Positions 4,174-39,194 of a stretch of 52,087 bases of DNA are shown here, piece by piece; position 1 is the stretch's first letter, and each line of letters opens with the position of its first letter. A program made the translations under genes and the position numbers. Source of the stretch: Escherichia virus TH21; the sequence record MT446395.1; one strand, 5' to 3'. The notes under the pieces were generated by a model. It did not search any database and was not told where the DNA came from. It worked only from the letters and a program-made list of their open reading frames with translations.

Positions 4174-4830
4174 ATGCGTACATCAGAGAAGTTTTCGAAT
4201 GTTTCAGCCGCTCTAATTGCAGCTAAAAAGCAGTTTGCTATCGCAAAAAAATCAGGCTTTAACACTCACCTGAAAAACCATTACTCAAACCTGACGGACG
4301 TTCTGGAGGCCGTTGAACCAGCGCTAAAAGAGCATGACCTTATGGTTATCCAGTCAAACCTGGACACGTCAACCGAAAAGGTAATGCACATTGAGACGCT
4401 CATCCTTCACAGTTCTGGCGAGTGGCTTGCGTTCCAGTACAATATGCCGATCGAGAAGATTAGCGCCCAGGCTTACGGCTCAACAACCTCATACGGTCGC
4501 CGTTACGCATTGTGCGCAGCGCTTGGAATCACTCAGAGCGATGACGACGCTGAAATCGCGAAGCGCACGGCAGCGGACTACAAAAAACTGATCACCAACT
4601 GTGAAAAACTGGAAGACCTCCAGGTGATCTATAAGAGCGCGAAAGGTTCGCTTGGCGCGGCGGAATGGAAGATTGCAGAAGACCACTTGCAGAAGCGCAA
4701 GGCTGAACTGAGTATCGGTAACGCTCGCGGTTTCCAGCCAGCGAAAAAGGCAGATACTCAAAAGGTTGAAGACAAGGTTGCAAACGCACATTCTGAACCT
4801 GTACAATCTGAATCCATCGAACAATTCTAA
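4174..4830 (+). CDS. single-strand annealing protein, Erf-like
   Basis: 218 aa; N-terminal AAKKQF...HLKNHYSNLTDVLEAV and GRRYAL motif pattern typical of Erf-family proteins. Confidence 0.55.
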   Translation: MRTSEKFSNVSAALIAAKKQFAIAKKSGFNTHLKNHYSNLTDVLEAVEPALKEHDLMVIQSNLDTSTEKVMHIETLILHSSGEWLAFQYNMPIEKISAQAYGSTTSYGRRYALCAALGITQSDDDAEIAKRTAADYKKLITNCEKLEDLQVIYKSAKGSLGAAEWKIAEDHLQKRKAELSIGNARGFQPAKKADTQKVEDKVANAHSEPVQSESIEQF

Positions 4831-9714: not shown

Positions 9715-11817
9715 ATGGCTATGCGCATTAAATCCATTAAAAAACAGATAGAAGAACTTGGCCCGCAAAAGATTAAAGAGATTCAGGATAAATTCACATT
9801 TGGCGACATGGTTCCTTATGAGTATCAGTGCGTAATGTATGACGAGATCGGCAAGCGCATTGCTCGCTATAAGCATCCATTCATCGTTAAAGCGTCAGTG
9901 TCGGCAGGTAAGACGATCGGCTTTGCCATGATTGCATCGCGCGTAAAAGAAATGGGCTTGTCTATGATGATACTGGCGCGTCAGGGCGATATAGTCGCTC
10001 AGGATAGTGAGGAGATCTCAAACTTCGGCGTTCCTAACTCAGTTTACTGTGCTGGCCTGAACACAAAATCAGCTTACTTCCCAATCGTTGTCGGTTCGGA
10101 AGGATCGGTTGCAAACGGTCTGTTTAAGGCGCTTGGTGATTTTACACCTATGGTGCTGGGTATTGATGAATGTCACCAGGTGGATTGGGAAGACCTTGCC
10201 GCCGCCATCGACAACGAAGAGACGATTGAAATGATGCTCACTGAAAAGGATGAGCGTGTATTCGTTGACTACCCGAAAAACAGCGAAGGTTATGTCAATG
10301 GATACCTTGATGGCGTAGAGGTTGGCGTTCAGGTGATGGATAAGCAATTGCTGATAAGCCGGAAGACTGGCGAGCCTGTTCTTGGAACAAAACGAAGCCA
10401 GTACACGATCATAATCACTGAATTGATGCGCCGCTGCAAAGAGAAGAACGGGAAGGAATTACGCATCTTCGGCATGACTGGTTCGGAGTTCAGAGGAACA
10501 GCGCCAATTGTTGTCGATAACCCTAAGCTGCCAGGATTCTGGCGTGAGCAGGTTACTAACATCGACACCAGCTACCTGATTGAGTTCGGCTCTGTTGTTC
10601 CAACAATCTTCGGAAGTGTCGGTGACGCTGGATATGATCTGGATGAGTTTAAGGCGTCCAGTCAGGATGGAACGGCTGACTTTGGTCAGAAAGAAATGAA
10701 GGCGATGGAGAAGAAAATCCATGATAACGCCAGCATGACCAAGCGAATAATGGGAATGGTAGTCGAAGAGGCGAAGAAGCGAAACGGTGTACTGATTACG
10801 TGTTCAGGCCAGCGCCATTGCAAAGAGGCGGCGAGCTATCTGCCACCTGACGCTACCTATGAGATCATCACGGAGAAGACGAACACCAAAAAACGACAAG
10901 CGATACTGGAGGCGGCGAACCGTGGCGAGATCAAATACATATTCCAGGTGGTAGCGCTAACCACTGGCGTTAACGTTCCGTTTTGGGATTTTTCGGTAAT
11001 CCTGCGCAAGATCGGCTCACTTACCCTGCTAATACAGTTACTTGGTCGAGGTATGCGATTGCTTAAGCCGTGGCAAAAAGCGATGGGAATGGTGAAAGAA
11101 GATCACCTGGTATGGGATTTCGCTGGCACGATGGATGAGCTTGGTCAGCTTTACTTCGATCCGATTCTTGAAGAGGCTCAGTACCAGCGCCGCTTTGATG
11201 GTAAGAAAGAGCCGAAAAAATGTGAACTGTGCGGAACCGAGAACAGCTTTTACGCCCGCCGCTGCATTCACAGAGACGAAAACGGCAATCGTTGTGAGTA
11301 TTTCTGGAAATCTCGAATCTGTGAAGACCAGATTGATGATCGCACTGGTGAGGTGATTGTTAAGGGATGTGGCGCTGAGAATGACGTAGTGGCGAGAATA
11401 TGCCGTTGCTGTGATGTGAGCCTGAAAGATCCCAATGATAATCTGACTGGTAAGGCTTACACCAAAAACGACTGGTGCACAGTGAATAGTTTTGAAGTAA
11501 CGCTGACACGCAATCAGACTGGTATTCTTTATCGTTACGATCTGACAGATTCAGTTGGAGTTAATTTCATCGCGTATGAAAAGTTCTTCCCGCAGTCAAC
11601 GGCACAGGTATGTCACACGATATGGAAACAGAAAGGGGTGCTGCCTCATGTGCATGACAGTAAGATCGCAAAGTTAATGGCAGCTTACAGAAGTGCTAAA
11701 ATGATTTTAAACAACGCTCACCACATAGCGCATCCAGTGCGGGTAACTCACCGCAAGAATGCAAAAGGTGAGGACATCATTTCACGTAAGGATTTTGGAT
11801 TGGACGGTAACTTATGA
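9715..11817 (+). CDS. ATP-dependent helicase, superfamily 2
   Basis: 700 aa; Walker A SAGKT; DECH box (GIDECHQV). Confidence 0.75.
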   Translation: MAMRIKSIKKQIEELGPQKIKEIQDKFTFGDMVPYEYQCVMYDEIGKRIARYKHPFIVKASVSAGKTIGFAMIASRVKEMGLSMMILARQGDIVAQDSEEISNFGVPNSVYCAGLNTKSAYFPIVVGSEGSVANGLFKALGDFTPMVLGIDECHQVDWEDLAAAIDNEETIEMMLTEKDERVFVDYPKNSEGYVNGYLDGVEVGVQVMDKQLLISRKTGEPVLGTKRSQYTIIITELMRRCKEKNGKELRIFGMTGSEFRGTAPIVVDNPKLPGFWREQVTNIDTSYLIEFGSVVPTIFGSVGDAGYDLDEFKASSQDGTADFGQKEMKAMEKKIHDNASMTKRIMGMVVEEAKKRNGVLITCSGQRHCKEAASYLPPDATYEIITEKTNTKKRQAILEAANRGEIKYIFQVVALTTGVNVPFWDFSVILRKIGSLTLLIQLLGRGMRLLKPWQKAMGMVKEDHLVWDFAGTMDELGQLYFDPILEEAQYQRRFDGKKEPKKCELCGTENSFYARRCIHRDENGNRCEYFWKSRICEDQIDDRTGEVIVKGCGAENDVVARICRCCDVSLKDPNDNLTGKAYTKNDWCTVNSFEVTLTRNQTGILYRYDLTDSVGVNFIAYEKFFPQSTAQVCHTIWKQKGVLPHVHDSKIAKLMAAYRSAKMILNNAHHIAHPVRVTHRKNAKGEDIISRKDFGLDGNL

Positions 11818-12242
11818 TTACAGATAAAGGCGACTACCTGGAATATTACACTCCAGACAAATCGGATACATGGACCGAAAGCAAACACCAGATCGATTGC
11901 GTGACCTGGACTAAAGTTAGGCATGGCGACCTATTATTCTGGCACACCGTTAATGAGGGCGAGAAGACGATGCATTCAGCCCTTGTTGACGGTCAGAGCG
12001 GGTTATTGAAGGGGGTTAGTGACTTTGTATTCCTTCTCGGCCTGTTCGGTAAATATCCGTTCGGGGCCATAGAATTGAAGCGAGTAAATAAAAGCGGGAA
12101 AGGCAAGGCATCACCAGTCAGCAAGAAGCAGAAAGATTTCCTCCGGCGTGTCCGTGAGCGTGGAGGATTCGCGGCGGTGGCGTACGGCCAGGAGGAATAC
12201 AAGAAAGCTGTTGCTGATATGCTGAATAGCACGAATTGCTAA
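11814..12242 (+). CDS. VRR-NUC-type nuclease
   Basis: 142 aa; D...ELK PD-(D/E)xK core (GVSDFVF...GAIELKR); ATGA overlap with helicase. Confidence 0.55.
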   Translation: MITDKGDYLEYYTPDKSDTWTESKHQIDCVTWTKVRHGDLLFWHTVNEGEKTMHSALVDGQSGLLKGVSDFVFLLGLFGKYPFGAIELKRVNKSGKGKASPVSKKQKDFLRRVRERGGFAAVAYGQEEYKKAVADMLNSTNC

Positions 12243-12582: not shown

Positions 12583-13311
12583 ATGATTGATTCAAACGAT
12601 AAAGACACTCATGACGCTTTCGTTAGCTTTGAGCAGATCGAGCGAGAAAACTTTATTACCAATGCGCTAGTTCCTGGTAACGGTCATTATCAAGCGGTTA
12701 AGCAGGACACCTTCTATCAGGTAACTGGAAACCGATACGCCGGAAGCAAGACTCCTGACGCAGTGCGTGACCTTTGGGCTACTGACAGAGAAGTGATCTC
12801 ATGGATGGAATCGCGTTATGGGAAGTATGACATTGACGCCGCCGCCAGCGATAATAATGCTGTTTGCGAGAAGTTCTACAGCGAGCAAGTGAACTGCCTC
12901 AAAATCTGGTGGGGTAGCAATAAGCACATCTGGCTTAATCCGCCGTACTCTCATCCAGATCCTTTTGTGAAGAAAGCGATTGAGCAAATGGAGCACAACA
13001 ATCAGATTGATATGTTGCTTCCTGGTGATAACTCAACGGCGTGGTTTGCCGAAGCCCGACGCAATTCGGCTGAAATAATCTGGATTGAGGCTGACATCAC
13101 AGAGATTGACAGTCAGGAATATTGCCGGACGGGGAGATTGGCCTTCATATCTGGACTGACCGGAAAGCCTGTCGATGGAAACAATAAAGGCAGCGTGATT
13201 TTTGTCATGCGAAAACTGCAAGAAGGCGAGACGCAGAAAACGACATACGTTAGCGTCTCTGATATTTGCCCTGGCGTAAGCCGTAAGAAACCACGTAAAC
13301 GGAGTGTTTAA
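12583..13311 (+). CDS. dam: DNA N6-adenine methyltransferase (Dam-like)
   Basis: 242 aa; NPPY catalytic motif (IWLNPPYS). Confidence 0.75.
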   Translation: MIDSNDKDTHDAFVSFEQIERENFITNALVPGNGHYQAVKQDTFYQVTGNRYAGSKTPDAVRDLWATDREVISWMESRYGKYDIDAAASDNNAVCEKFYSEQVNCLKIWWGSNKHIWLNPPYSHPDPFVKKAIEQMEHNNQIDMLLPGDNSTAWFAEARRNSAEIIWIEADITEIDSQEYCRTGRLAFISGLTGKPVDGNNKGSVIFVMRKLQEGETQKTTYVSVSDICPGVSRKKPRKRSV

Positions 13312-28706: not shown

Positions 28707-29246
28707 ATGAATCAGATGTACACCATGATTAAGCACGAATTGAATACCGCGGAAATCAATGCGCCAGTCTACGTGTTTGATTACGACGGTACGCTGTCGG
28801 ACGGATCGCATCGTTTGCATAAGTTGCCTACAAAGGATTTGCACCTTACTGAGTCATGGTCTGAGTTCAATCGATTGTCAGAGCGTGATGAGCCTATCGA
28901 ATCAACCATTCAGGTAATGAATAGCCTGTACTACTCCGGCGCGTTCATCATCATACTAACCGGGCGCTCAGATGAGGTGTGCGAGATTTCAACTAAATGG
29001 CTTCACGATGCTGGCGCTAAATACAACGTTCTGGTCATGCGCCAGGATGATGACAACCGCAAGGATACGATCATCAAGGAAGAATTTTTACGATACATTG
29101 GCTTGCACCGCATCACCGCAGCGTGGGATGATAGCGTGAGTGTTATAAAGCACTTCCGCAGCTTAGGTATTACCACCTATCAGGTTTGTGATTACGCCGA
29201 TAACAATCGAGAGGATTTAAAATCTCATGGGGTGCATAAGAAGTGA
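28707..29246 (+). CDS. HAD-superfamily phosphatase/nucleotidase-like protein
   Basis: 179 aa; motif I FDYDGTLSDG (DxDGT). Confidence 0.5.
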   Translation: MNQMYTMIKHELNTAEINAPVYVFDYDGTLSDGSHRLHKLPTKDLHLTESWSEFNRLSERDEPIESTIQVMNSLYYSGAFIIILTGRSDEVCEISTKWLHDAGAKYNVLVMRQDDDNRKDTIIKEEFLRYIGLHRITAAWDDSVSVIKHFRSLGITTYQVCDYADNNREDLKSHGVHKK

Positions 29247-29730
29247 TTCAGAGTACCTAAAATTCCTATTCAGTTACAATGACGGGGTGATAACTTGGCG
29301 AAACAAGTCATCACCTCAAAGTAGGATTGTTTTAGGTGAGCGAGCAGGAAGTTTTGATAAGGATGGATACCTGATCGTAAGGGTTAGAAATCAAACATCG
29401 TCGATACATAGGATCGTGTGGGTTTATCATAACGGAGAAATACCAGCCGGATTTGAAATTGACCATGTTGACGGCGATAAACTAAATAACAGGATTGAAA
29501 ACTTAAGACTCACAACAAGATCTGTTAATTGCAGTAATCAGAGAAAGAGAATTGATAACACCAGCGGTGTTTGTGGTGTAACATTCATGAAAGATAGGCT
29601 AAAATACAGGGCGCAAGTCAGAGGTGTAAGGCTTGGTCAATTCGATACTAAAGAAGAAGCCGCCGAGGCTGTTGCTAAGTACAGATCATATTCTGGCGGA
29701 TTCACTGAAAGACACGGTAAGGAGATTTAA
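29227..29730 (+). CDS. HNH homing endonuclease (HNH + AP2-like DNA-binding domain)
   Basis: 167 aa; HNH core IDHVDGDKLNNRIENLR; paralogous to 36891..37373. Confidence 0.65.
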   Translation: MGCIRSDSEYLKFLFSYNDGVITWRNKSSPQSRIVLGERAGSFDKDGYLIVRVRNQTSSIHRIVWVYHNGEIPAGFEIDHVDGDKLNNRIENLRLTTRSVNCSNQRKRIDNTSGVCGVTFMKDRLKYRAQVRGVRLGQFDTKEEAAEAVAKYRSYSGGFTERHGKEI

Positions 29731-29733
29731 AAA

Positions 29734-30354
29734 ATGTCAAAGATTATCATTCTCAACGGTCCAGCTTCGGTTGGTAAAGACACGATTGGCAACGCCCTAG
29801 CAGCAGATTACAACTGCATCCCGACCAGCTTCAAGCGTCCGATGTTTGAGATTGCAGCATCCATCCTTGGGGCCAGGGCTTTTTCAAAGTTCATCACAGC
29901 ATACGACGACCGCGATCAGAAAGAGATGCCTCAGAGCTTCCTTGGTGGCAAGACATGCCGCGAGTTCATGATCTGGATTAGCGAGTCTGTGGTAAAGCCG
30001 CTATTTGGCAACCAGCAATTCGGAAAGCTGATGAGCGAACATATCAAGCTGTGTGACGAAGGATTCTGTTTTGTGTGTACTGATGGCGGCTTCCCTGATG
30101 AAGTGATCAGGCTCGTTGAAGATGGTCACGATGTTACCCTGGTCCGCTTGTTCATGGATGGCAAGACTTTCGCGGGAGATAGCCGTGATTACATCCGCAT
30201 CAAGCAATCGCACTTCCCTGATTACAAGAAATATAACGAGCATGATGTGCATCTGGTAAATGGTGATGTTGATGATGGCGTCCTTAAAGTAGTTCGCGCT
30301 TGCTTGGTTAGTCCTTCAATGGATGATGATTGGGCAGACGATATTCCTTGGTAA
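29734..30354 (+). CDS. deoxynucleoside monophosphate kinase with acidic SSB-tip-like C-terminus
   Basis: 206 aa; P-loop GPASVGKDT; C-terminus DDDWADDIPW. Confidence 0.6.
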   Translation: MSKIIILNGPASVGKDTIGNALAADYNCIPTSFKRPMFEIAASILGARAFSKFITAYDDRDQKEMPQSFLGGKTCREFMIWISESVVKPLFGNQQFGKLMSEHIKLCDEGFCFVCTDGGFPDEVIRLVEDGHDVTLVRLFMDGKTFAGDSRDYIRIKQSHFPDYKKYNEHDVHLVNGDVDDGVLKVVRACLVSPSMDDDWADDIPW

Positions 30355-32687: not shown

Positions 32688-33224
32688 ATGAAAGACGAAA
32701 ACTTCACCAGTCACGCAAACGAGAAGGTTCGAATCGGTAACTTCAAAGAGCTATACAATAAAAAGTATGGCGACATTGCCAACCTGAACCATCGTCACCC
32801 AATGACGCCTGAGACTGTATTCAACCTTGCTGTTAAATATTTCTCATGGGCCGAGGACCAGGCAATTAAGGCAATCGAAACGGCGAGCTTCCAGGGCGTT
32901 GTCACTGAGAACCTAGTGCACAAGCCGCGAGTGTTCACGCTCAACGGCTTCCAGCTTTATTGCGGAGTTACCTCCGGTGCTATCCAAAGCTGGCGCGCGT
33001 CGCCTGGATTCTCTGAGGTAATGGAGTTCATCGACTCAGTAATCATTGAACAGAAATATCAGTTAGCTGCGTCCAACCTTATCAACGCCGGATTCGTAGG
33101 CAAAGACATTGGTATCGACAAGGCGGCAGAAGTGAACGTGCAGAACAACGTATCTGCTGGCGCGGTGTCCGTGACTACGGATGAATTTAAAGAAGCCGTT
33201 AAGGATATTTTGGGGGAATTATGA
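32688..33224 (+). CDS. terminase small subunit
   Basis: 178 aa; position immediately upstream of large terminase; ATGA overlap. Confidence 0.6.
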   Translation: MKDENFTSHANEKVRIGNFKELYNKKYGDIANLNHRHPMTPETVFNLAVKYFSWAEDQAIKAIETASFQGVVTENLVHKPRVFTLNGFQLYCGVTSGAIQSWRASPGFSEVMEFIDSVIIEQKYQLAASNLINAGFVGKDIGIDKAAEVNVQNNVSAGAVSVTTDEFKEAVKDILGEL

Positions 33225-34807
33225 TCCAGTGGGAAGATCTCGACCTTGCAAGAAAGCAGGCAATAAAGGCGCTCTCTGAGCAGTCATTCGAAAAGATGTT
33301 ACGAATCTGGTTCCAGATCGGGCAGGCTCAGAAGTTCCAAAGCAACTGGCACTTCACTTACCTTTGCTGGAAGGTTGAGCAGATCATCAAAGGCGAGGCG
33401 CAGAACGTGATATTCAACATCACGCCAGGCTCCGGCAAAACTGAGATCTTCTCCATCCACATGCCAGTGTACGGGATGTTAAAGAGTCCGAAGGTTCGAA
33501 ATTTGAACCTTTCGTTCTCTGACAGTCTGGTAAAGGATAACGGGATCAGGACGCGTGAGATTATCGGTTGCGATGAGTTCCAGGAGCTATGGCCTACCAA
33601 ACTGGCTAAGGCGTCCGGTGGCGATATTACCGCACTGAACGATAACGATAAGGCGTGGCTGACGTTAACATCACGTGCGATCGGCGGCCAGGTAACTGGT
33701 AAGCGTGGCGGGTACATGGAAGACCCCAGTAAACCCTGGAGATTTACCGGAATGTTAACGCTTGATGACCCCGACAAACCGAAAGACATGTATTCGTCCA
33801 TTAAGCGAAAGGCGGCTCATACACTGCTAAAAAACACCGTGCGATCACGTCGTATGACTGACAGAACGCCATGCGTTGTTGTGCAGCAGCGACTGCACGT
33901 TAACGACTCGACGTGGTTCCTGATGAATGGCGGTATGGGTGGCATGAAGTTTGAGCAGGTAATCATTCCGGCGCTGGTAACTGAGGAATACAGAGACACG
34001 CTTCCTGACTGGTTGAAAGAGGAATTTGATAAAGACGTGCTATCGTCCACGTCGGTAATGATTGACGGTGTTGAGCACTTCTCTTTCTGGCCTGCGAAGG
34101 AAAGCGCAGAAAGCCTACTGGCATTGCGCGAAGCTGACCTGTATACGTTTGAATCTCAGTATCAGCAGAAGCCCATCGCGCTTGGCGGCAACGCGTTTAA
34201 ATCGGACTGGTTCCAGTATTACGGAGACGGCGAAAAAGCCGACATGCCAAAACCGGATCGCTTCGAATACCTGTTCACCACTGCGGATACAGCGCAGAAA
34301 GCAGAGGAAATACACGACTACAGCGTCTTTGTTTTGTGGGGTAAGTATAAGGATCGCGTATATTTCATAGACGGCATTCGCGGTAAGTGGGAAGCGCCGG
34401 ACCTTGAAACGATGGCTCTCAACTTCTACGGCAACTGCTTTAAATGGGCGAAGGAGAACAAGACGTCACTACGCAAGGTTTATATTGAAGATAAGGCGAG
34501 CGGTACAGGACTGATTCAGTCAATCAACAAGAAGCTCCCGATTGACATCACGCCAGTACAGCGAGATACCGACAAGGTTACGCGCGCAATGGACGCAGCA
34601 CCAATCATGAAATCAGGGCGAATCGTGTTTCCTGAATCACACCCAATGCTTACTGAGATGGAGGCTGAACTGGTCGGCTTCACATTTGACGATAGCCATC
34701 CTCACGATGACATCGTGGATAACGTGGTTGATGCTGGTAACTTCGAGATGAACTTGCTTGATGATCCTGTAGCTCGAATGAAACGATTAGCGGGAATGCG
34801 CAAATAA
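33221..34807 (+). CDS. terminase large subunit
   Basis: 528 aa; Walker A (TPGSGKT); C-terminal nuclease-like acidic motifs. Confidence 0.8.
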   Translation: MIQWEDLDLARKQAIKALSEQSFEKMLRIWFQIGQAQKFQSNWHFTYLCWKVEQIIKGEAQNVIFNITPGSGKTEIFSIHMPVYGMLKSPKVRNLNLSFSDSLVKDNGIRTREIIGCDEFQELWPTKLAKASGGDITALNDNDKAWLTLTSRAIGGQVTGKRGGYMEDPSKPWRFTGMLTLDDPDKPKDMYSSIKRKAAHTLLKNTVRSRRMTDRTPCVVVQQRLHVNDSTWFLMNGGMGGMKFEQVIIPALVTEEYRDTLPDWLKEEFDKDVLSSTSVMIDGVEHFSFWPAKESAESLLALREADLYTFESQYQQKPIALGGNAFKSDWFQYYGDGEKADMPKPDRFEYLFTTADTAQKAEEIHDYSVFVLWGKYKDRVYFIDGIRGKWEAPDLETMALNFYGNCFKWAKENKTSLRKVYIEDKASGTGLIQSINKKLPIDITPVQRDTDKVTRAMDAAPIMKSGRIVFPESHPMLTEMEAELVGFTFDDSHPHDDIVDNVVDAGNFEMNLLDDPVARMKRLAGMRK

Positions 34808-34815
34808 TGTATAAT

Positions 34816-34842
34816 GGCTAGGCTAACAACCTAGCCTTTTTT
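34816..34842 (+). terminator. intrinsic terminator/attenuator after large terminase
   Basis: hairpin ggctagg..cctagcc plus T6. Confidence 0.55.
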
Positions 34843-34858
34843 ATTGGGAGAAAAACAG

Positions 34859-36121
34859 ATGAGTAAAAAAAGCGTTAAGACCGACTCTTACAACAAAACG
34901 TTTAAGGGTGAAGGTACGGCAGGCGGCGAGCTTGTATCGCTATATGATCAGATGTATGTGACTCAGTTTTACATTGATGATCCTATGGCTAAGAAAATTG
35001 TCGATGTGATTCCAGAAGAAATGGTTTTCCCTGGATTCGGCCTTGACGGCGTGAAGGATGAGAAGGCGTTCAAATCATTGTGGGATGGCATGAAGCTGAA
35101 TAAGCAGATCGTTGAGGCGTTCTCATGGGAGCGGCTTTATGGTGGCTCAGCCATCGTCGCCGTCGTACGCGATAACCGACTACTGACATCACCAATCAAG
35201 GAAGGTGCGCAGCTTGAATCAATCCGCGTCTACGAGAAAGAGCAGATCCGCATCAAGGACCGAGAGAAGAACGCGCGAAATCCTCGTTATGGTATGCCGA
35301 AGATTTACACCATTAACCCTGGCGGCAGCGTACCGGAATACGACGTTCACTACACGCGAATCTATGTTAACGGAGGCGAGCGTGTCCCTGGCTCACTTCG
35401 CGCGCAGAATAACGATTGGGGAGCATCTGTACTGAGCAAGGGCTTGATTGATGCCATTCTGGACTACAACTACTGTGAGGAACTGGCGACTCAGCTATTG
35501 CGCCGTAAGCAGCAAGGCGTATGGAAAGCTAAAGGTCTGGCGGATTTGTGCGACGATGACGAAGGTCGTTACGCGGCGCGACTGCGATTAGCGCAGGTTG
35601 ATGACAATGGCGGCGTAGGCCGGACGATCGGCATTGATGCAACCGACGAAGAATACGACGTTCTTAACTCTGACATTGACGGCGTTGATGCTTTCCTTGA
35701 TAAGAAGATGGACCGCATCGTGAACTACTCACAGATTCATGAGATTATCCTCAAGAATAAGAACGTAGGCGGCGTGTCAGCGAGCCAGAATACGGCGCTT
35801 GAGACTTTCTATAAGATGATTGATCGCAAGCGTAACGAGTATTACAGGCCTCTTCTGGAGTGGCTGGTTCCTATGATTATTCAGGAGGATGAATGGTCAA
35901 TCCGCTTTGAGCCGCTATCAATGCCAAGCGAGAAAGAACAATCCGAGACTTTGAAGAATAACGTTGAGTCGCTTTCGAAGCTGCTGGCTGAGCAGGTCAT
36001 TGACCGTGACGAAGCGCGTGATACACTTGAGGCAATCGCAGACTTTATCAAGATTCAAGGCCCAGCGCCGGAGATTGAAGAGATCGAGCCAACTAACCCG
36101 CAGGTGAACAACGAGGAATAA
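34859..36121 (+). CDS. portal protein
   Basis: 420 aa from ATG 34859; position after terminase. Confidence 0.7.
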   Translation: MSKKSVKTDSYNKTFKGEGTAGGELVSLYDQMYVTQFYIDDPMAKKIVDVIPEEMVFPGFGLDGVKDEKAFKSLWDGMKLNKQIVEAFSWERLYGGSAIVAVVRDNRLLTSPIKEGAQLESIRVYEKEQIRIKDREKNARNPRYGMPKIYTINPGGSVPEYDVHYTRIYVNGGERVPGSLRAQNNDWGASVLSKGLIDAILDYNYCEELATQLLRRKQQGVWKAKGLADLCDDDEGRYAARLRLAQVDDNGGVGRTIGIDATDEEYDVLNSDIDGVDAFLDKKMDRIVNYSQIHEIILKNKNVGGVSASQNTALETFYKMIDRKRNEYYRPLLEWLVPMIIQEDEWSIRFEPLSMPSEKEQSETLKNNVESLSKLLAEQVIDRDEARDTLEAIADFIKIQGPAPEIEEIEPTNPQVNNEE

Positions 36122-36123
36122 TC

Positions 36124-36888
36124 ATGAAGGTTAACGGCATTGTAAACCAATGGAGTTACCCCGAAGCAAGCGAGCGGCAGCTTAGCCGCTCATTGTCAAC
36201 ATTCGCAGGCGAGATGGCAAAGAAAGCCAGATCGCTTACTGGCGGAATGAGGTTTGACGCTTCGGACGAAGAAATCAATGATGCAGAAAGTGAGCTTGAG
36301 GAATACGCAGCAGGACTTATCGCGGCGATTGTTGCCACACTTCCGGCGCTGGCTCTGACTATCTACAAGTTTAACTCAAGGCAATTCCTCAACGTGGCGA
36401 AAAAGGCTGGTGGCGGAAAGAATCAATCTGTGATATTGCTTGGCGCACTTGGGGCGAATGCCAATGAGTCATGGTATCGCGAGAAGTCATCGCAATGGCG
36501 CGGTTCGGCTGAGGCGAGTATTCTAAAGCTATCGAACGACATCATCTCTGACTGGTCGCAAAACCTACGCGTCGAAAACGTGCGCAATAAAACCAGTCAG
36601 CAGATTGATGAAGTTTTAAAGCAGCGCTACAAGGTGTATACTGGCTGGACCGTGAATCGCTCCCGTGGAATTGTGTCCACCTGGAACAGCGTACTGATGC
36701 GCCAGCGCTTGGACGATGCTGGAGTAACTCACTATTTCTGGCATGGTAAACTGGACGAGCGCGAGCGATTGCAGCACGTAAAATGGGAAGGTAAACGTAT
36801 TGAGATCTCAAGTGACCATCCTTTCCCTGGAGAGCCTTACGGTTGCCGTTGTTGGGCAATTCCATCATTCGATAGCAATGGGAATTAA
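36124..36888 (+). CDS. head morphogenesis protein (Mu F / SPP1 gp7-like)
   Basis: 254 aa; position after portal. Confidence 0.55.
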   Translation: MKVNGIVNQWSYPEASERQLSRSLSTFAGEMAKKARSLTGGMRFDASDEEINDAESELEEYAAGLIAAIVATLPALALTIYKFNSRQFLNVAKKAGGGKNQSVILLGALGANANESWYREKSSQWRGSAEASILKLSNDIISDWSQNLRVENVRNKTSQQIDEVLKQRYKVYTGWTVNRSRGIVSTWNSVLMRQRLDDAGVTHYFWHGKLDERERLQHVKWEGKRIEISSDHPFPGEPYGCRCWAIPSFDSNGN

Positions 36889-36890
36889 CT

Positions 36891-37373
36891 ATGAATTTCA
36901 ATGATTATTTTTATCACACAGAGAAGGATCTCATCTGGAAAAATCCGACATCGAGAAGGGTTAAGGCTGGCGACGTTGCTGGTTGGATGGATGAAGATGG
37001 ATATATTTACGTTAGGATCATGGGGAGGCTAACTCCGGCACATAGGGTAATATGGGAGATGCATAACGGTGAAATACCCAAAGGAATTGAAATTAACCAT
37101 ATAAATCATATCAGAGATGATAACAGGATAGAGAACCTAAGACTCGTAACCAGGCAAGAGAATTGCAAAAGCGTATCCATAAGCAAGTCAAACAAGAGCG
37201 GAGTTGTCGGGGTTAGCTGGTGTAAGAGAACGGGGAAATGGTTTGCTTCAATAAGGGTGAACAAAAAGGAGAAATTCCTTGGTAGATACGATAGAAAAGA
37301 TGACGCAATATCTGCAAGAAAGGCTGCAGAGTCTGTATATGAATTTCATAAAAATCACGGGAGTAAAAAATGA
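36891..37373 (+). CDS. HNH homing endonuclease (HNH + AP2-like domain)
   Basis: 160 aa; INHINHIRDDNRIENLR; paralogous to 29227..29730. Confidence 0.65.
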   Translation: MNFNDYFYHTEKDLIWKNPTSRRVKAGDVAGWMDEDGYIYVRIMGRLTPAHRVIWEMHNGEIPKGIEINHINHIRDDNRIENLRLVTRQENCKSVSISKSNKSGVVGVSWCKRTGKWFASIRVNKKEKFLGRYDRKDDAISARKAAESVYEFHKNHGSKK

Positions 37374-38500
37374 CAACCAAGCAAAGATACGATAGCGTGC
37401 AACTGAAAGCGCGCTTTGACTCGAACGGATTCATGCATGATGAGCCAATCATTGCACGAATCGGCATTCAGGAATATATGCGTGCCGATGGAACAATGCA
37501 GCGTGAGTTCCGACCAGCCAACGAAGTGTTCAAGGCCGAGGCGATGGAACTGTTTCGCGGTATGCCGATCGTAGAGGGCCACCAGGAAGTAAGCACAAGC
37601 AACGCGCGAAAGATTGTTGTTGGCTCACTATCCGGTGCTGGTCGCCGTGACGGAATCGGCTTGAAGTGTCCGATCGTAATCCACGACAAGGAATCAATCG
37701 AATCAGCCAAGCGTGGCGACGCCGCAGAATTGTCGGTTGGTTACAAGACAAATGACATTCACCGCGAAGGGTGGGGAAACATCAATACTGGCGAGTATGT
37801 TTTCAAGGATGACGTGGAAGGGATGGAGGCGCAATTCCCTAAAGGAACTGCCATGACTGATGAATGGGAGGAGTTCGACGTTCTGCAAACGAACATCATC
37901 CCAAACCACGTTGCCAAGGTAAAGCACGGGCGCGCAGGTATTGCCAGATTAAACCTTGACGGCTCAGAAGAAATTAAATATGATGAGCATGTTCAATTAA
38001 ACAATGAGGAAAGTAACATGACCGTAAAAATCAAAATTGATTCCGCAGAAGTGGAAGTGACCAAAGACGTAGCTGATCACATCGGCAAACTACAAACCGC
38101 AGCAGAGCAAGCTGGTGCTAAAGCTGACGGCCTGCAAGCTGAGCGCGATGCGCTGAAAGAAAAGGTTGACGGCATTCCTGCTCAGATCGAAGCGGCTCTG
38201 GCGGAAGCAAAAGAAAAAGCTGACGCGCTGGGAGCTGTTCTCACTTTCGCTTCCGGCCTTGGTATCAAGTGCGACGGCCTGGATGAGAAGGCTATCAAAC
38301 TGGCAGTAATTGACGAAGTTCTCGGCATTGACGCGAAAGAAAAATCCGACGCATACATCAATCAGTCTTATGAAATCGCTCGCGATTCTGATAAGATGGC
38401 TGCTCAACGCATCAAAGTGCACGGCGATAAAGCTGACGGCGCTCAAGGCGACAAAGCTGATGACGCGATTCCTGATCCTCAGGCGCGCTTCCGTAAGTAA
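37370..38500 (+). CDS. scaffolding protein, possibly with prohead protease domain
   Basis: 376 aa; C-terminal Ala/Lys/Asp-rich coiled-coil-like region. Confidence 0.5.
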   Translation: MTTKQRYDSVQLKARFDSNGFMHDEPIIARIGIQEYMRADGTMQREFRPANEVFKAEAMELFRGMPIVEGHQEVSTSNARKIVVGSLSGAGRRDGIGLKCPIVIHDKESIESAKRGDAAELSVGYKTNDIHREGWGNINTGEYVFKDDVEGMEAQFPKGTAMTDEWEEFDVLQTNIIPNHVAKVKHGRAGIARLNLDGSEEIKYDEHVQLNNEESNMTVKIKIDSAEVEVTKDVADHIGKLQTAAEQAGAKADGLQAERDALKEKVDGIPAQIEAALAEAKEKADALGAVLTFASGLGIKCDGLDEKAIKLAVIDEVLGIDAKEKSDAYINQSYEIARDSDKMAAQRIKVHGDKADGAQGDKADDAIPDPQARFRK

Positions 38501-38553: not shown

Positions 38554-39165
38554 ATGGCACTAATCAAAGCTTCTTACACCGTACATCGCGCTAAAGCGTA
38601 TGCTGGTCAAATCGCAGACACCTCCCTTTACAATGTTGACGGGGCTTGCGCGGCTGATGGTTCAATCCCTGTCGGGCGACTTCTCGCAGTGAGTGAAGTA
38701 CAAGCCGTTGACGGGCACAAAGTAGTCAAGGTTGCTACTGACAGTTCTCTACCATTGATTGGCGTTTCAGTTATGAGCCACGCATACTCTGCAAGTGGTG
38801 AATATGAAGACGGAATTGCTGTAAACGTTCTTACACATGGTCGCGTATGGGTTCCTGTCGTTAAGGCTGGTTTACTTGATGACGATTACTCTTACGGCAA
38901 GCAGGTATTGTTTAACTCAGATGGCGTAGTTGCTCGAGATGGCGGTATTGCAACTGGTTATAAATTTACTGGTCAGAAGTTATCATCTGATAATGCTACA
39001 TATGATCTCGTTCAGATTCAGTTGCTTCAATCTGCTGGTGCTCCCGTTGTTGGTCCTCAAGGTGCGAAAGGTGACACTGGTCCGCAAGGTCCGAAAGGCG
39101 ATAAAGGTGATACTGGTCCGCAAGGTCCAAAAGGTGACAAGGGCGACCCTGGCGCGGCGGCTTAA
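38554..39165 (+). CDS. head-associated structural protein with C-terminal collagen-like Gly-X-Y repeats (decoration/fibre candidate)
   Basis: 203 aa; GPQGAKGDTGPQGPKGDKGDTGPQGPKGDKGDPG. Confidence 0.45.
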   Translation: MALIKASYTVHRAKAYAGQIADTSLYNVDGACAADGSIPVGRLLAVSEVQAVDGHKVVKVATDSSLPLIGVSVMSHAYSASGEYEDGIAVNVLTHGRVWVPVVKAGLLDDDYSYGKQVLFNSDGVVARDGGIATGYKFTGQKLSSDNATYDLVQIQLLQSAGAPVVGPQGAKGDTGPQGPKGDKGDTGPQGPKGDKGDPGAAA

Positions 39166-39174
39166 TTAAAATAC

Positions 39175-39194
39175 GGGGCTTCGGCCCCTTTTTT
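39175..39194 (+). terminator. intrinsic terminator
   Basis: hairpin ggggc-ttcg-gcccc plus T6. Confidence 0.65.

Follow-up and report, generated by a model that had tools for sequence, protein, structure and literature searches.

The genome of Escherichia virus TH21 (sequence record MT446395.1), whose 52,087 nucleotides form the window analyzed here, is that of a T1-like coliphage of the genus Nouzillyvirus in the Drexlerviridae. Its nearest sequenced relatives are CJ19, TH30, TH27, PH1062, and ESCO41, which share 85% to 95% nucleotide identity with it over the head region. On the plus strand of this region, TerL and portal genes precede a gene for a Mu-F-like head morphogenesis/minor capsid protein (36124..36888; sub-threshold match to Pfam Phage_Mu_F, phrog_324 at 1.4e-66, and a cross-genus alignment), a 160-aa ORF with an ATG start (36891..37373; HNH1), and a gene for a DUF2213 head maturation protease/scaffold protein (37370..38500; phrog_530), followed by genes for a cement protein and the major capsid protein. 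The ORF and its 160-aa product exist exactly as given in a preliminary description of the window, and the Pfam and PHROG matches of the neighbors bear out its placement between head morphogenesis and scaffold genes. ATGA overlaps had been described on both sides of the ORF. One of them is present, at 37370..37373, where the protease start overlaps the HNH1 stop; on the upstream side the morphogenesis gene ends in TAA (36886..36888), and a 2-nt spacer (CT) separates it from the HNH1 ATG. An overlap of this kind on the upstream side occurs in phage CJ19 and is absent from the window.

Two terminator-like hairpins on the plus strand, one after TerL (34816..34836) and one after the cement/decoration gene (39175..39188), bound a portal-morphogenesis-HNH1-protease-cement unit. 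A scan placed no promoter or terminator between HNH1 and its neighbors, and the total counts of such elements lie within about 1.5 sd of those in shuffled sequence. Since no element separates HNH1 from its neighbors within this unit, the protein is presumably made late, through coupling to the morphogenesis gene, whose stop lies 2 nt before the HNH1 ATG, with a weak SD.

The HNH1 protein scores 76.6 bits and the product of a second ORF, HNH2 (29227..29730, plus strand, 167 aa, also of the HNH-AP2 homing endonuclease type), 72.5 bits to Pfam HNH_3, against a gathering threshold of 24.8. The HNH core of HNH1, a beta-beta-alpha-Me fold resembling that of I-HmuI, comprises residues 66 to 94 (37086..37172, plus strand; IEI-N69-H70-INHIRDD-N78-RIE-N82-LRLVTRQE-N91-CK-S94), as delimited by a profile alignment to I-HmuI (1U3E) and an alignment of orthologs. 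The general-base His at the end of strand 1 (H70) and the metal-binding Asn in the helix (N91) align with I-HmuI H75 and N96, respectively. Directly before the general-base His, HNH2 has the acidic metal ligand (Asp), whereas HNH1 has Asn69. The spacing in the core motif string of the preliminary description is only approximate.

C-terminal to the core, residues ~103 to 150 (37197..37340, plus strand) are predicted to form an AP2-fold DNA-binding domain, with beta strands at 108-111, 116-123, and 126-133 followed by a helix at 136-149. This three-stranded antiparallel sheet packed on one helix is superimposable on solved AP2 domains, and the family profile matched those of WRI1, TEM1, and a Plasmodium ApiAP2 over HNH1 residues ~99 to 150. 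The family profile was needed to reach both I-HmuI and the AP2 domains in the PDB; a single-sequence phmmer search of the PDB with HNH1 returned only a chance match, to I-MsoI (E = 0.31). Since HNH1 scores 17.5 bits to Pfam AP2 (PF00847), below the threshold of 33.3, its AP2 assignment rests on the profile and the fold and not on Pfam; HNH2 has no match to this model, and several close homologs of HNH1 carry a precomputed PF00847 assignment. The C-terminal domain is putatively responsible for sequence-specific DNA binding. An N-terminal HNH domain joined to a C-terminal AP2 domain defines a homing endonuclease family described by Magnani et al. 2004, as cited in PMC10448857, and I-HmuI-like His-Me finger nucleases (HNH_3) constitute group 2 in PMC5714182. 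We consider it very probable that HNH1 is a free-standing homing endonuclease gene (HEG) of the I-HmuI-like HNH_3 group, composed of an N-terminal beta domain, a beta-beta-alpha-metal nuclease, and a C-terminal AP2 fold, and that it belongs to a mobile lineage. Direct support comes from the domain architecture, from a fixed site that is occupied in some genomes and empty in others, from the sharp edges of the cassette and its near-identity in backbones that have diverged, and from purifying selection in the lineage.

HNH1 and HNH2 are homologous, as the preliminary description had proposed. The two proteins are 40% identical (61% positives) over 138 aligned residues (BLASTP, E = 8e-34), and the aligned part begins in the N-terminal beta region, takes in the HNH core, and reaches the C-terminal region, well beyond the short HNH signature. 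Both also match phrog_99 ("HNH endonuclease") end to end, with E values of 5e-61 for HNH1 and 7e-57 for HNH2. A phmmer search that covered every window ORF of 50 aa or more detected no third member of the family, and no other HEG family is represented among ten other mid-sized ORFs of the window (Erf, VRR-NUC, Dam, lysozyme, TerS, and similar).

Comparison with relatives delimits the HEG1 cassette to 36865..37362 (plus strand), 498 bp in the place of 41 bp in PH1062 and TH27, based on blastn breakpoints, an alignment, and the morphogenesis-gene tails of 12 relatives. On the left, it begins directly behind the conserved ...FPGEPYGCRCWA-x-P codons of the morphogenesis gene. The cassette contains a new 8-codon tail and stop for that gene (..P, then SFDSNGN and the stop), the HNH ORF, and, at its right end, an SD-like GGGAGTAA for the protease gene. 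The cassette-supplied tail, P-SFDS..., is common to all filled genomes, and empty genomes read P-D-M/F... and fall into at least two allele types. Of 12 different Nouzillyvirus phages from the phage collection, four have the gene at this site (site 1; CJ19, 97.5% aa identity to HNH1; TH30, 90%; BUCT-XGG-1, 87.6%; ESCO41, 85%), and the site is empty in PH1062, TH27, p111, P817, P818, XT34, GaoY1-9D, and 50EP. The element is thus present or absent at one fixed site in these 12 phages, with identical, sharp breakpoints at 36865 and 37362, as is characteristic of a HEG.

Tunavirus ULIM2 (77.5% aa identity) and many Klebsiella Webervirus phages (~75%) also have a gene of this lineage at site 1, and their flanking morphogenesis and protease proteins are only 48% to 51% identical to those of the window; site 1 is empty in the Vilniusvirus HazelMika. 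This distribution is consistent with old transfers between genera. Because dS is saturated between the genera, it is not taken as proof of transfer, and the argument that the HEG is more conserved than its flanks is weak at this distance, as stronger purifying selection on the HEG could explain it.

Evidence at closer range comes from metagenomic contigs. Four of these (L020-L023) differ from the window at only two or three positions within the 483-nt gene, and their 1.5-kb flanks are 3.4% to 15% divergent. In a base-by-base mismatch map, the near-identical tract shared with L022 extends over 642 bp (36781..37422, plus strand) and differs only by the two active-site substitutions described below. 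Over the same interval, L020 has these two changes and one synonymous difference at 37169, which is also found in L023. The tract shared with L021 covers 531 bp (36844..37374) and is identical apart from the same two substitutions. The tracts thus consist of the HEG1 cassette and 12 to 84 bp of flank, with endpoints that differ among contigs, and beyond them the mismatch maps rise to 9 to 25 differences per 200 nt. At the divergence of the flanks, 21 to 32 differences would be expected in the tracts (Poisson P of three or fewer differences, 7e-11 and 1e-6). As expected of a HEG, the element is more alike between genomes than the DNA around it, and this holds for both HNH1 and HNH2. The pattern indicates recent gene conversion, most simply read from these alignments as homing with short co-conversion tracts, since a near-identical cassette inside diverged flanks points to recent homing and deletion in other genomes cannot yield such tracts. 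The dN/dS of the HNH1 lineage is 0.06 to 0.13, and this purifying selection implies that the protein has a maintained function.

It is very unlikely that HNH1 is instead a non-mobile accessory gene, ancestral to the Drexlerviridae and repeatedly deleted. Occupancy of site 1 in three genera, with saturated dS, does make the association with the site old. However, the cassette is 99.6% to 100% identical in backbones that are 4% to 6% apart, with identity endpoints that differ on each side, and each of the three distinct empty-site alleles has a different intact tail of the morphogenesis gene; incongruence between cassette and flanks counts as refutation of such a history.

The flanks of the Nouzillyvirus genomes are themselves mosaic. 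The INPHARED genomes alone have no co-conversion gradient, and the signal emerged with the much closer metagenomic contigs. Within 1.1 to 1.4 kb of flank, a single upstream SNP column and a few scattered downstream ones distinguish Nouzillyvirus genomes with the HEG from those lacking it, with no clean separation. Escape of the target site from cleavage predicts a peak of nucleotide diversity next to the insertion point. No such peak is present there (pi of 0.126 in the last 45 bp against a mean of 0.083, rank 104 of 697). Since diversity is no outlier and no flank SNPs separate the two groups, the flanks provide no independent signal of the target site.

The position of HNH1 within the late head operon, 2 kb downstream of TerL and portal, also raises the question of a role in packaging, as HNH proteins are known parts of phage packaging machines (PMC5714182, PMC5304195). 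HNH1 would then correspond to the packaging-associated HNH protein of HK97-like cos phages, an obligatory partner of terminase and portal in the formation of genome ends. We consider this extremely improbable. HNH1 is missing from 8 of the 12 near-identical Nouzillyvirus phages, all viable isolates, and it is an I-HmuI/HNH_3 protein with an AP2 domain, not one of the small PF01844 zinc-ribbon type found beside cos/TerS. Furthermore, the portal and morphogenesis genes stand between TerL and HNH1, the cassette moves independently of its flanks, and the active site of the window copy is mutated. Absence from most close relatives, the wrong type of HNH domain, and independent mobility led us to reject a packaging role.

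Other HEGs are found elsewhere in the packaging and head module of Nouzillyvirus. In the window, no gene lies between TerL (33221..34807) and portal (34844..36121) in the region 33221..36121. The same gap contains a 525-bp HNH homing endonuclease gene in CJ19 and p111 and a different one of 444 bp in PH1062, and in contig L020 TerS and TerL are separated by an HNH_3 gene. These differing HEGs at several sites make the module a multi-site "HEG island" whose occupancy differs from genome to genome. The protease/scaffold gene occurs in two allele classes in Nouzillyvirus. The version in p111, P817, XT34, and GaoY1-9D (L004/L015/L017/L018) is 72% identical to that of the window, differs from it at the 5' end, and is separated from the morphogenesis gene by a 54-bp spacer, so the edge of the module falls where the HEG inserts. 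The cement/decoration protein (Phage_cement, 38554..39165) has a tail of collagen-like G-X-Y repeats (GPQGPKGDKGDTGPQGPKGDKGDPG), and the allele with this tail is shared with PH1062 (98.5%) and contig L020. The cement alleles of CJ19, TH27, and p111 are 51% to 54% identical, align over residues 1-160 only, and are without the tail. In PH1062 the cement region is annotated as three small hypothetical ORFs, through which tblastn reads continuously. The portal ORF starts at a TTG (34844..34858 region) and encodes 425 aa, and relatives annotate 420 aa; the true start is likely the ATG five codons downstream (MSKKSV...).

HNH2 lies at a different junction, downstream of the polynucleotide kinase/phosphatase gene pnk (28707..29246, plus strand; PF25109 HAD_PNKP in relatives), with which it overlaps by 20 nt. 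Its cassette (HEG2; 29204..29731, plus strand; blastn breakpoints and alignment) replaces ~160 bp of the pnk 3' end and intergenic DNA of HEG2-less Nouzillyvirus. Within the pnk 3' end, the T1-like 15-mer TCGAGAGGATTTAAA (29207..29221, plus strand) includes an SD-like GAGAGGA, more than 5 nt upstream of the HNH2 ATG. In the window, TCGAGAGGATTTAAA lies within the last ~25 nt of pnk, where Nouzillyvirus relatives lacking HEG2 have unrelated sequence, so the ribosome-binding site of HNH2, although located in the 3' end of pnk, comes with the cassette. In these relatives, pnk is followed by a spacer of ~120 to 160 bp and then by a kinase-like gene, and no Nouzillyvirus record of the phage collection has HNH2 at the pnk site. 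The survey of relatives thus found polymorphism at site 1 and, at the HNH2 site, Nouzillyvirus records without the HEG.

The nearest annotated relative of HNH2 is T1 gp63 (66% aa identity), at the syntenic pnk junction. Ten metagenomic proteins are at least 90% identical to HNH2, several of them on contigs of about 50 kb, and one contig, SRR25250754_637, has both the HNH1 and the HNH2 element. Four contigs differ from the window at two or three of the 504 nt of HNH2, with pnk up to ~30% and the downstream DNA 7% to 13% diverged. The near-identical tract shared with contig L025 extends from 29169 to 29786 with only two differences. The HNH2 core retains the canonical D-H...N...N...N residues. 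From these comparisons, HNH2 is another HEG that was acquired independently and moved recently, and its site is the one after pnk. The preliminary description had called the two genes paralogous and spoken of two copies, which suggests duplication within this genome. They are homologous; in-genome duplication was rejected, as HNH1 and HNH2 are 40% identical to each other and 66% to 97% identical to same-site relatives elsewhere. For HNH1 in particular, the genes that other Drexlerviridae have at the morphogenesis/protease junction are 75% to 97.5% identical. By sequence relationship, each gene belongs to its own site-specific lineage, and the two are independent acquisitions.

Other rearrangements are found around pnk. 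In 50EP, an HNH endonuclease gene (L006 1978..2430) lies immediately upstream of pnk, on the opposite side from HNH2. It has no similarity to HNH1 or HNH2 detectable by tblastn at E of 1e-5 or below, and it looks like a third HEG lineage with pnk as a landing pad. The pnk of ESCO41 (L005 1981..2598) has, instead of the usual SHGVH-K end, a C-terminal extension of ~26 codons with a Cys-rich tail (…CEHEF…CKKCN…), another rearrangement at the junction where HNH2 inserts.

The HNH1 copy in the window differs from its nearest relative, protein P0130 (present on five contigs), at exactly two residues, D69N and N94S. At the nucleotide level, it has two nonsynonymous differences and no synonymous ones from L021 and L022, at these same two codons. 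At codon 69 (37095..37097, plus strand), the window has AAC (Asn), where every same-site ortholog and 59 of 62 family members have GAC (Asp). At codon 94 (37170..37172, plus strand), it has AGC (Ser), where every ortholog and 61 of 62 family members have AAC (Asn). Both D69 and N94 are kept in the six same-site orthologs, which represent three genera, and in all 14 of the other cluster members listed (of 23 in the cluster).

Position 69 immediately precedes the general-base His and, by alignment with Asp74 of I-HmuI (a number counted along the 1U3E sequence in the profile alignment), is the position of a metal ligand. The residue in this position is a metal ligand in I-HmuI, Hpy99I, and KpnI, and mutagenesis of Hpy99I has shown it to be functionally important (PMC2816704, PMC2699513). 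Position 94, which aligns with Asn99 of I-HmuI, is located one helical turn past the metal-binding Asn91, and its conservation and helix geometry suggest a role in the catalytic core. If two amino acid changes were placed at random, the probability of both falling in the six near-invariant core columns would be ~0.001, and in any columns that are at least 90% conserved 0.04. In a clear member of the HNH_3 family, an active-site point substitution bears on activity and not on ancestry. Since both changes are in near-invariant columns, the window copy is probably an attenuated or inactive endonuclease. Because Asn is also able to ligate Mg2+, D69N may reduce activity without abolishing it. The most likely state of the window copy is that of an attenuated or dead nuclease predicted to retain DNA binding. 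The "active homing" of the preliminary description is accordingly upheld in one respect and doubtful in another: recent mobility is strongly indicated for both lineages and the catalytic residues of HNH2 are canonical, but the window copy of HNH1, with D69N and N94S, may not itself be active. The roles in marker exclusion or DNA processing that the preliminary description suggested are hypothetical.

Sequencing or assembly errors in a fully active HEG are a highly improbable source of the two substitutions. The exact protein is found on a single contig, that of the window, so that both changes rest on one assembly, and both are single transitions. However, two independent errors would have had to fall on catalytic-core codons of a 642-bp tract that otherwise matches L022 exactly and L020 in all but one synonymous position.

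Loss of activity could reflect ordinary decay after invasion, helped by a cost of the nuclease, or, less likely, selection for a derivative that only binds DNA. Such a derivative would be a sequence-specific DNA-binding protein that shields its own locus from related HEGs or regulates late genes. The location of the only two substitutions in near-invariant catalytic-core columns, with no synonymous change and with the AP2 domain and the remaining protein unchanged, is what this would predict, and the chance probabilities given above point the same way. However, the sample is two mutations in one genome, none of the other cluster members listed shares the changes, and neutral decay after fixation or a nuclease cost gives the same picture with no new function, so we regard selection for a new role as unlikely. 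The conversion of an HNH-AP2 endonuclease into a pure DNA-binding protein is the route proposed for the origin of plant and apicomplexan AP2 factors. If the window copy had taken this route, the allele would be a natural snapshot of the first step of domestication, either as an "immunity" factor against incoming HEGs or as a regulator of late genes. Elsewhere in the family, one more Asn and one Gly are found at position 69 and two Tyr in place of His70, which suggests that degenerate copies may be scattered through the HNH-AP2 family.

Together these features suggest a cycle of homing at the morphogenesis/protease junction. In a mixed infection, an active enzyme of the HNH1 lineage would recognize a HEG-less allele at or near the junction. 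The candidate target, suggested by position only, is the conserved FPGEPYGCRCWA codons directly upstream of the insertion point. The enzyme would nick or cut this allele, and recombinational repair from the HEG-containing genome would then copy the ~0.5-kb cassette together with 12 to 84 bp of flank. Cleavage or nicking and homing by the HNH1 lineage, as well as the repair pathway, are proposed here from sequence comparison. The window encodes an Erf-family single-strand annealing protein (4174..4830), a VRR-NUC nuclease (11814..12242), and a Dam methyltransferase (12583..13311), and we infer that the Erf annealase and the VRR-NUC protein could serve the repair step. The cassette appears to be built to spare the phage, with a replacement C-terminal tail and stop for the upstream gene and a ribosome-binding site for the downstream one, and, lacking a promoter of its own, it would be translated as part of the late head operon.

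HNH-AP2 homing endonucleases are textbook selfish elements, and orthologs of HNH1 have already been annotated in relatives, so the gene itself is unsurprising. What is new here are the exact cassette boundaries, the occupancy counts, the direct evidence of recent transfer for both elements, and the double substitution in the active site. With one 0.5-kb cassette in diverged backbones, mapped co-conversion endpoints, empty-site alleles, and an allele with a changed active site, the locus is an unusually clean natural example. Coliphage isolates that already exist (CJ19 against PH1062 or TH27) put target-site mapping, homing, and the cost or benefit of nuclease activity within reach of direct tests. 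The morphogenesis/protease and pnk junctions of Drexlerviridae are recombination hot spots, which calls for caution in annotation and in phage engineering.

Among known systems, the orthologs at the same site, annotated as "AP2 domain protein" or "HNH endonuclease" in CJ19, ESCO41, BUCT-XGG-1, TH30, ULIM2, and Klebsiella Webervirus phages, share the length, insertion site, and protease-gene overlap of HNH1. They keep D69 and N94, and the window copy alone has N69 and S94. T1 gp63 (ST63), from a Tunavirus and with an HNH role known from annotation, is 39% identical to HNH1; like HNH2, it lies between pnk and a kinase-like gene, and its start ATG is embedded in the "SHGV" codons of pnk. I-HmuI of Bacillus phage SPO1 (PDB 1U3E) is ~18% identical to HNH1. 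It is encoded within an intron, and its C-terminal DNA-binding region is of the helix-turn-helix type. HNH1, in contrast, is free-standing and has an AP2 fold, and the window copy has Asn at the equivalent of Asp74 and Ser at that of Asn99.

The "IPA-HNH" HEGs of ICP1-like phages (Barth et al. 2023, PMC10448857) are like HNH1 in being free-standing and in having an HNH domain at the N terminus and an AP2 domain at the C terminus. They lie beside essential genes, often several per genome in "HEG islands," as do HNH1 and HNH2. In contrast to HNH1, with its 76.6 bits, the HNH domains of the ICP1 proteins are too divergent for Pfam HNH_3 (PMC10448857). The phage family also differs (Drexlerviridae here), and the morphogenesis/protease homing site is specific to the HNH1 lineage. 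The Seg and Mob HEGs of T4 (SegG, MobE) are likewise free-standing between conserved genes. According to work cited in PMC10448857, they spread by cutting the allele that lacks the HEG, a process accompanied by marker exclusion and by co-conversion of neighboring markers. The Seg enzymes are of the GIY-YIG type and the Mob proteins fall into another HNH group (group 1, PMC5714182), with no sequence relationship to HNH1 beyond the His-Me finger. By analogy, the HNH1 element would act like the free-standing HEGs of T4, with an ancestry that lies in the I-HmuI/HNH_3 group joined to an AP2 module.
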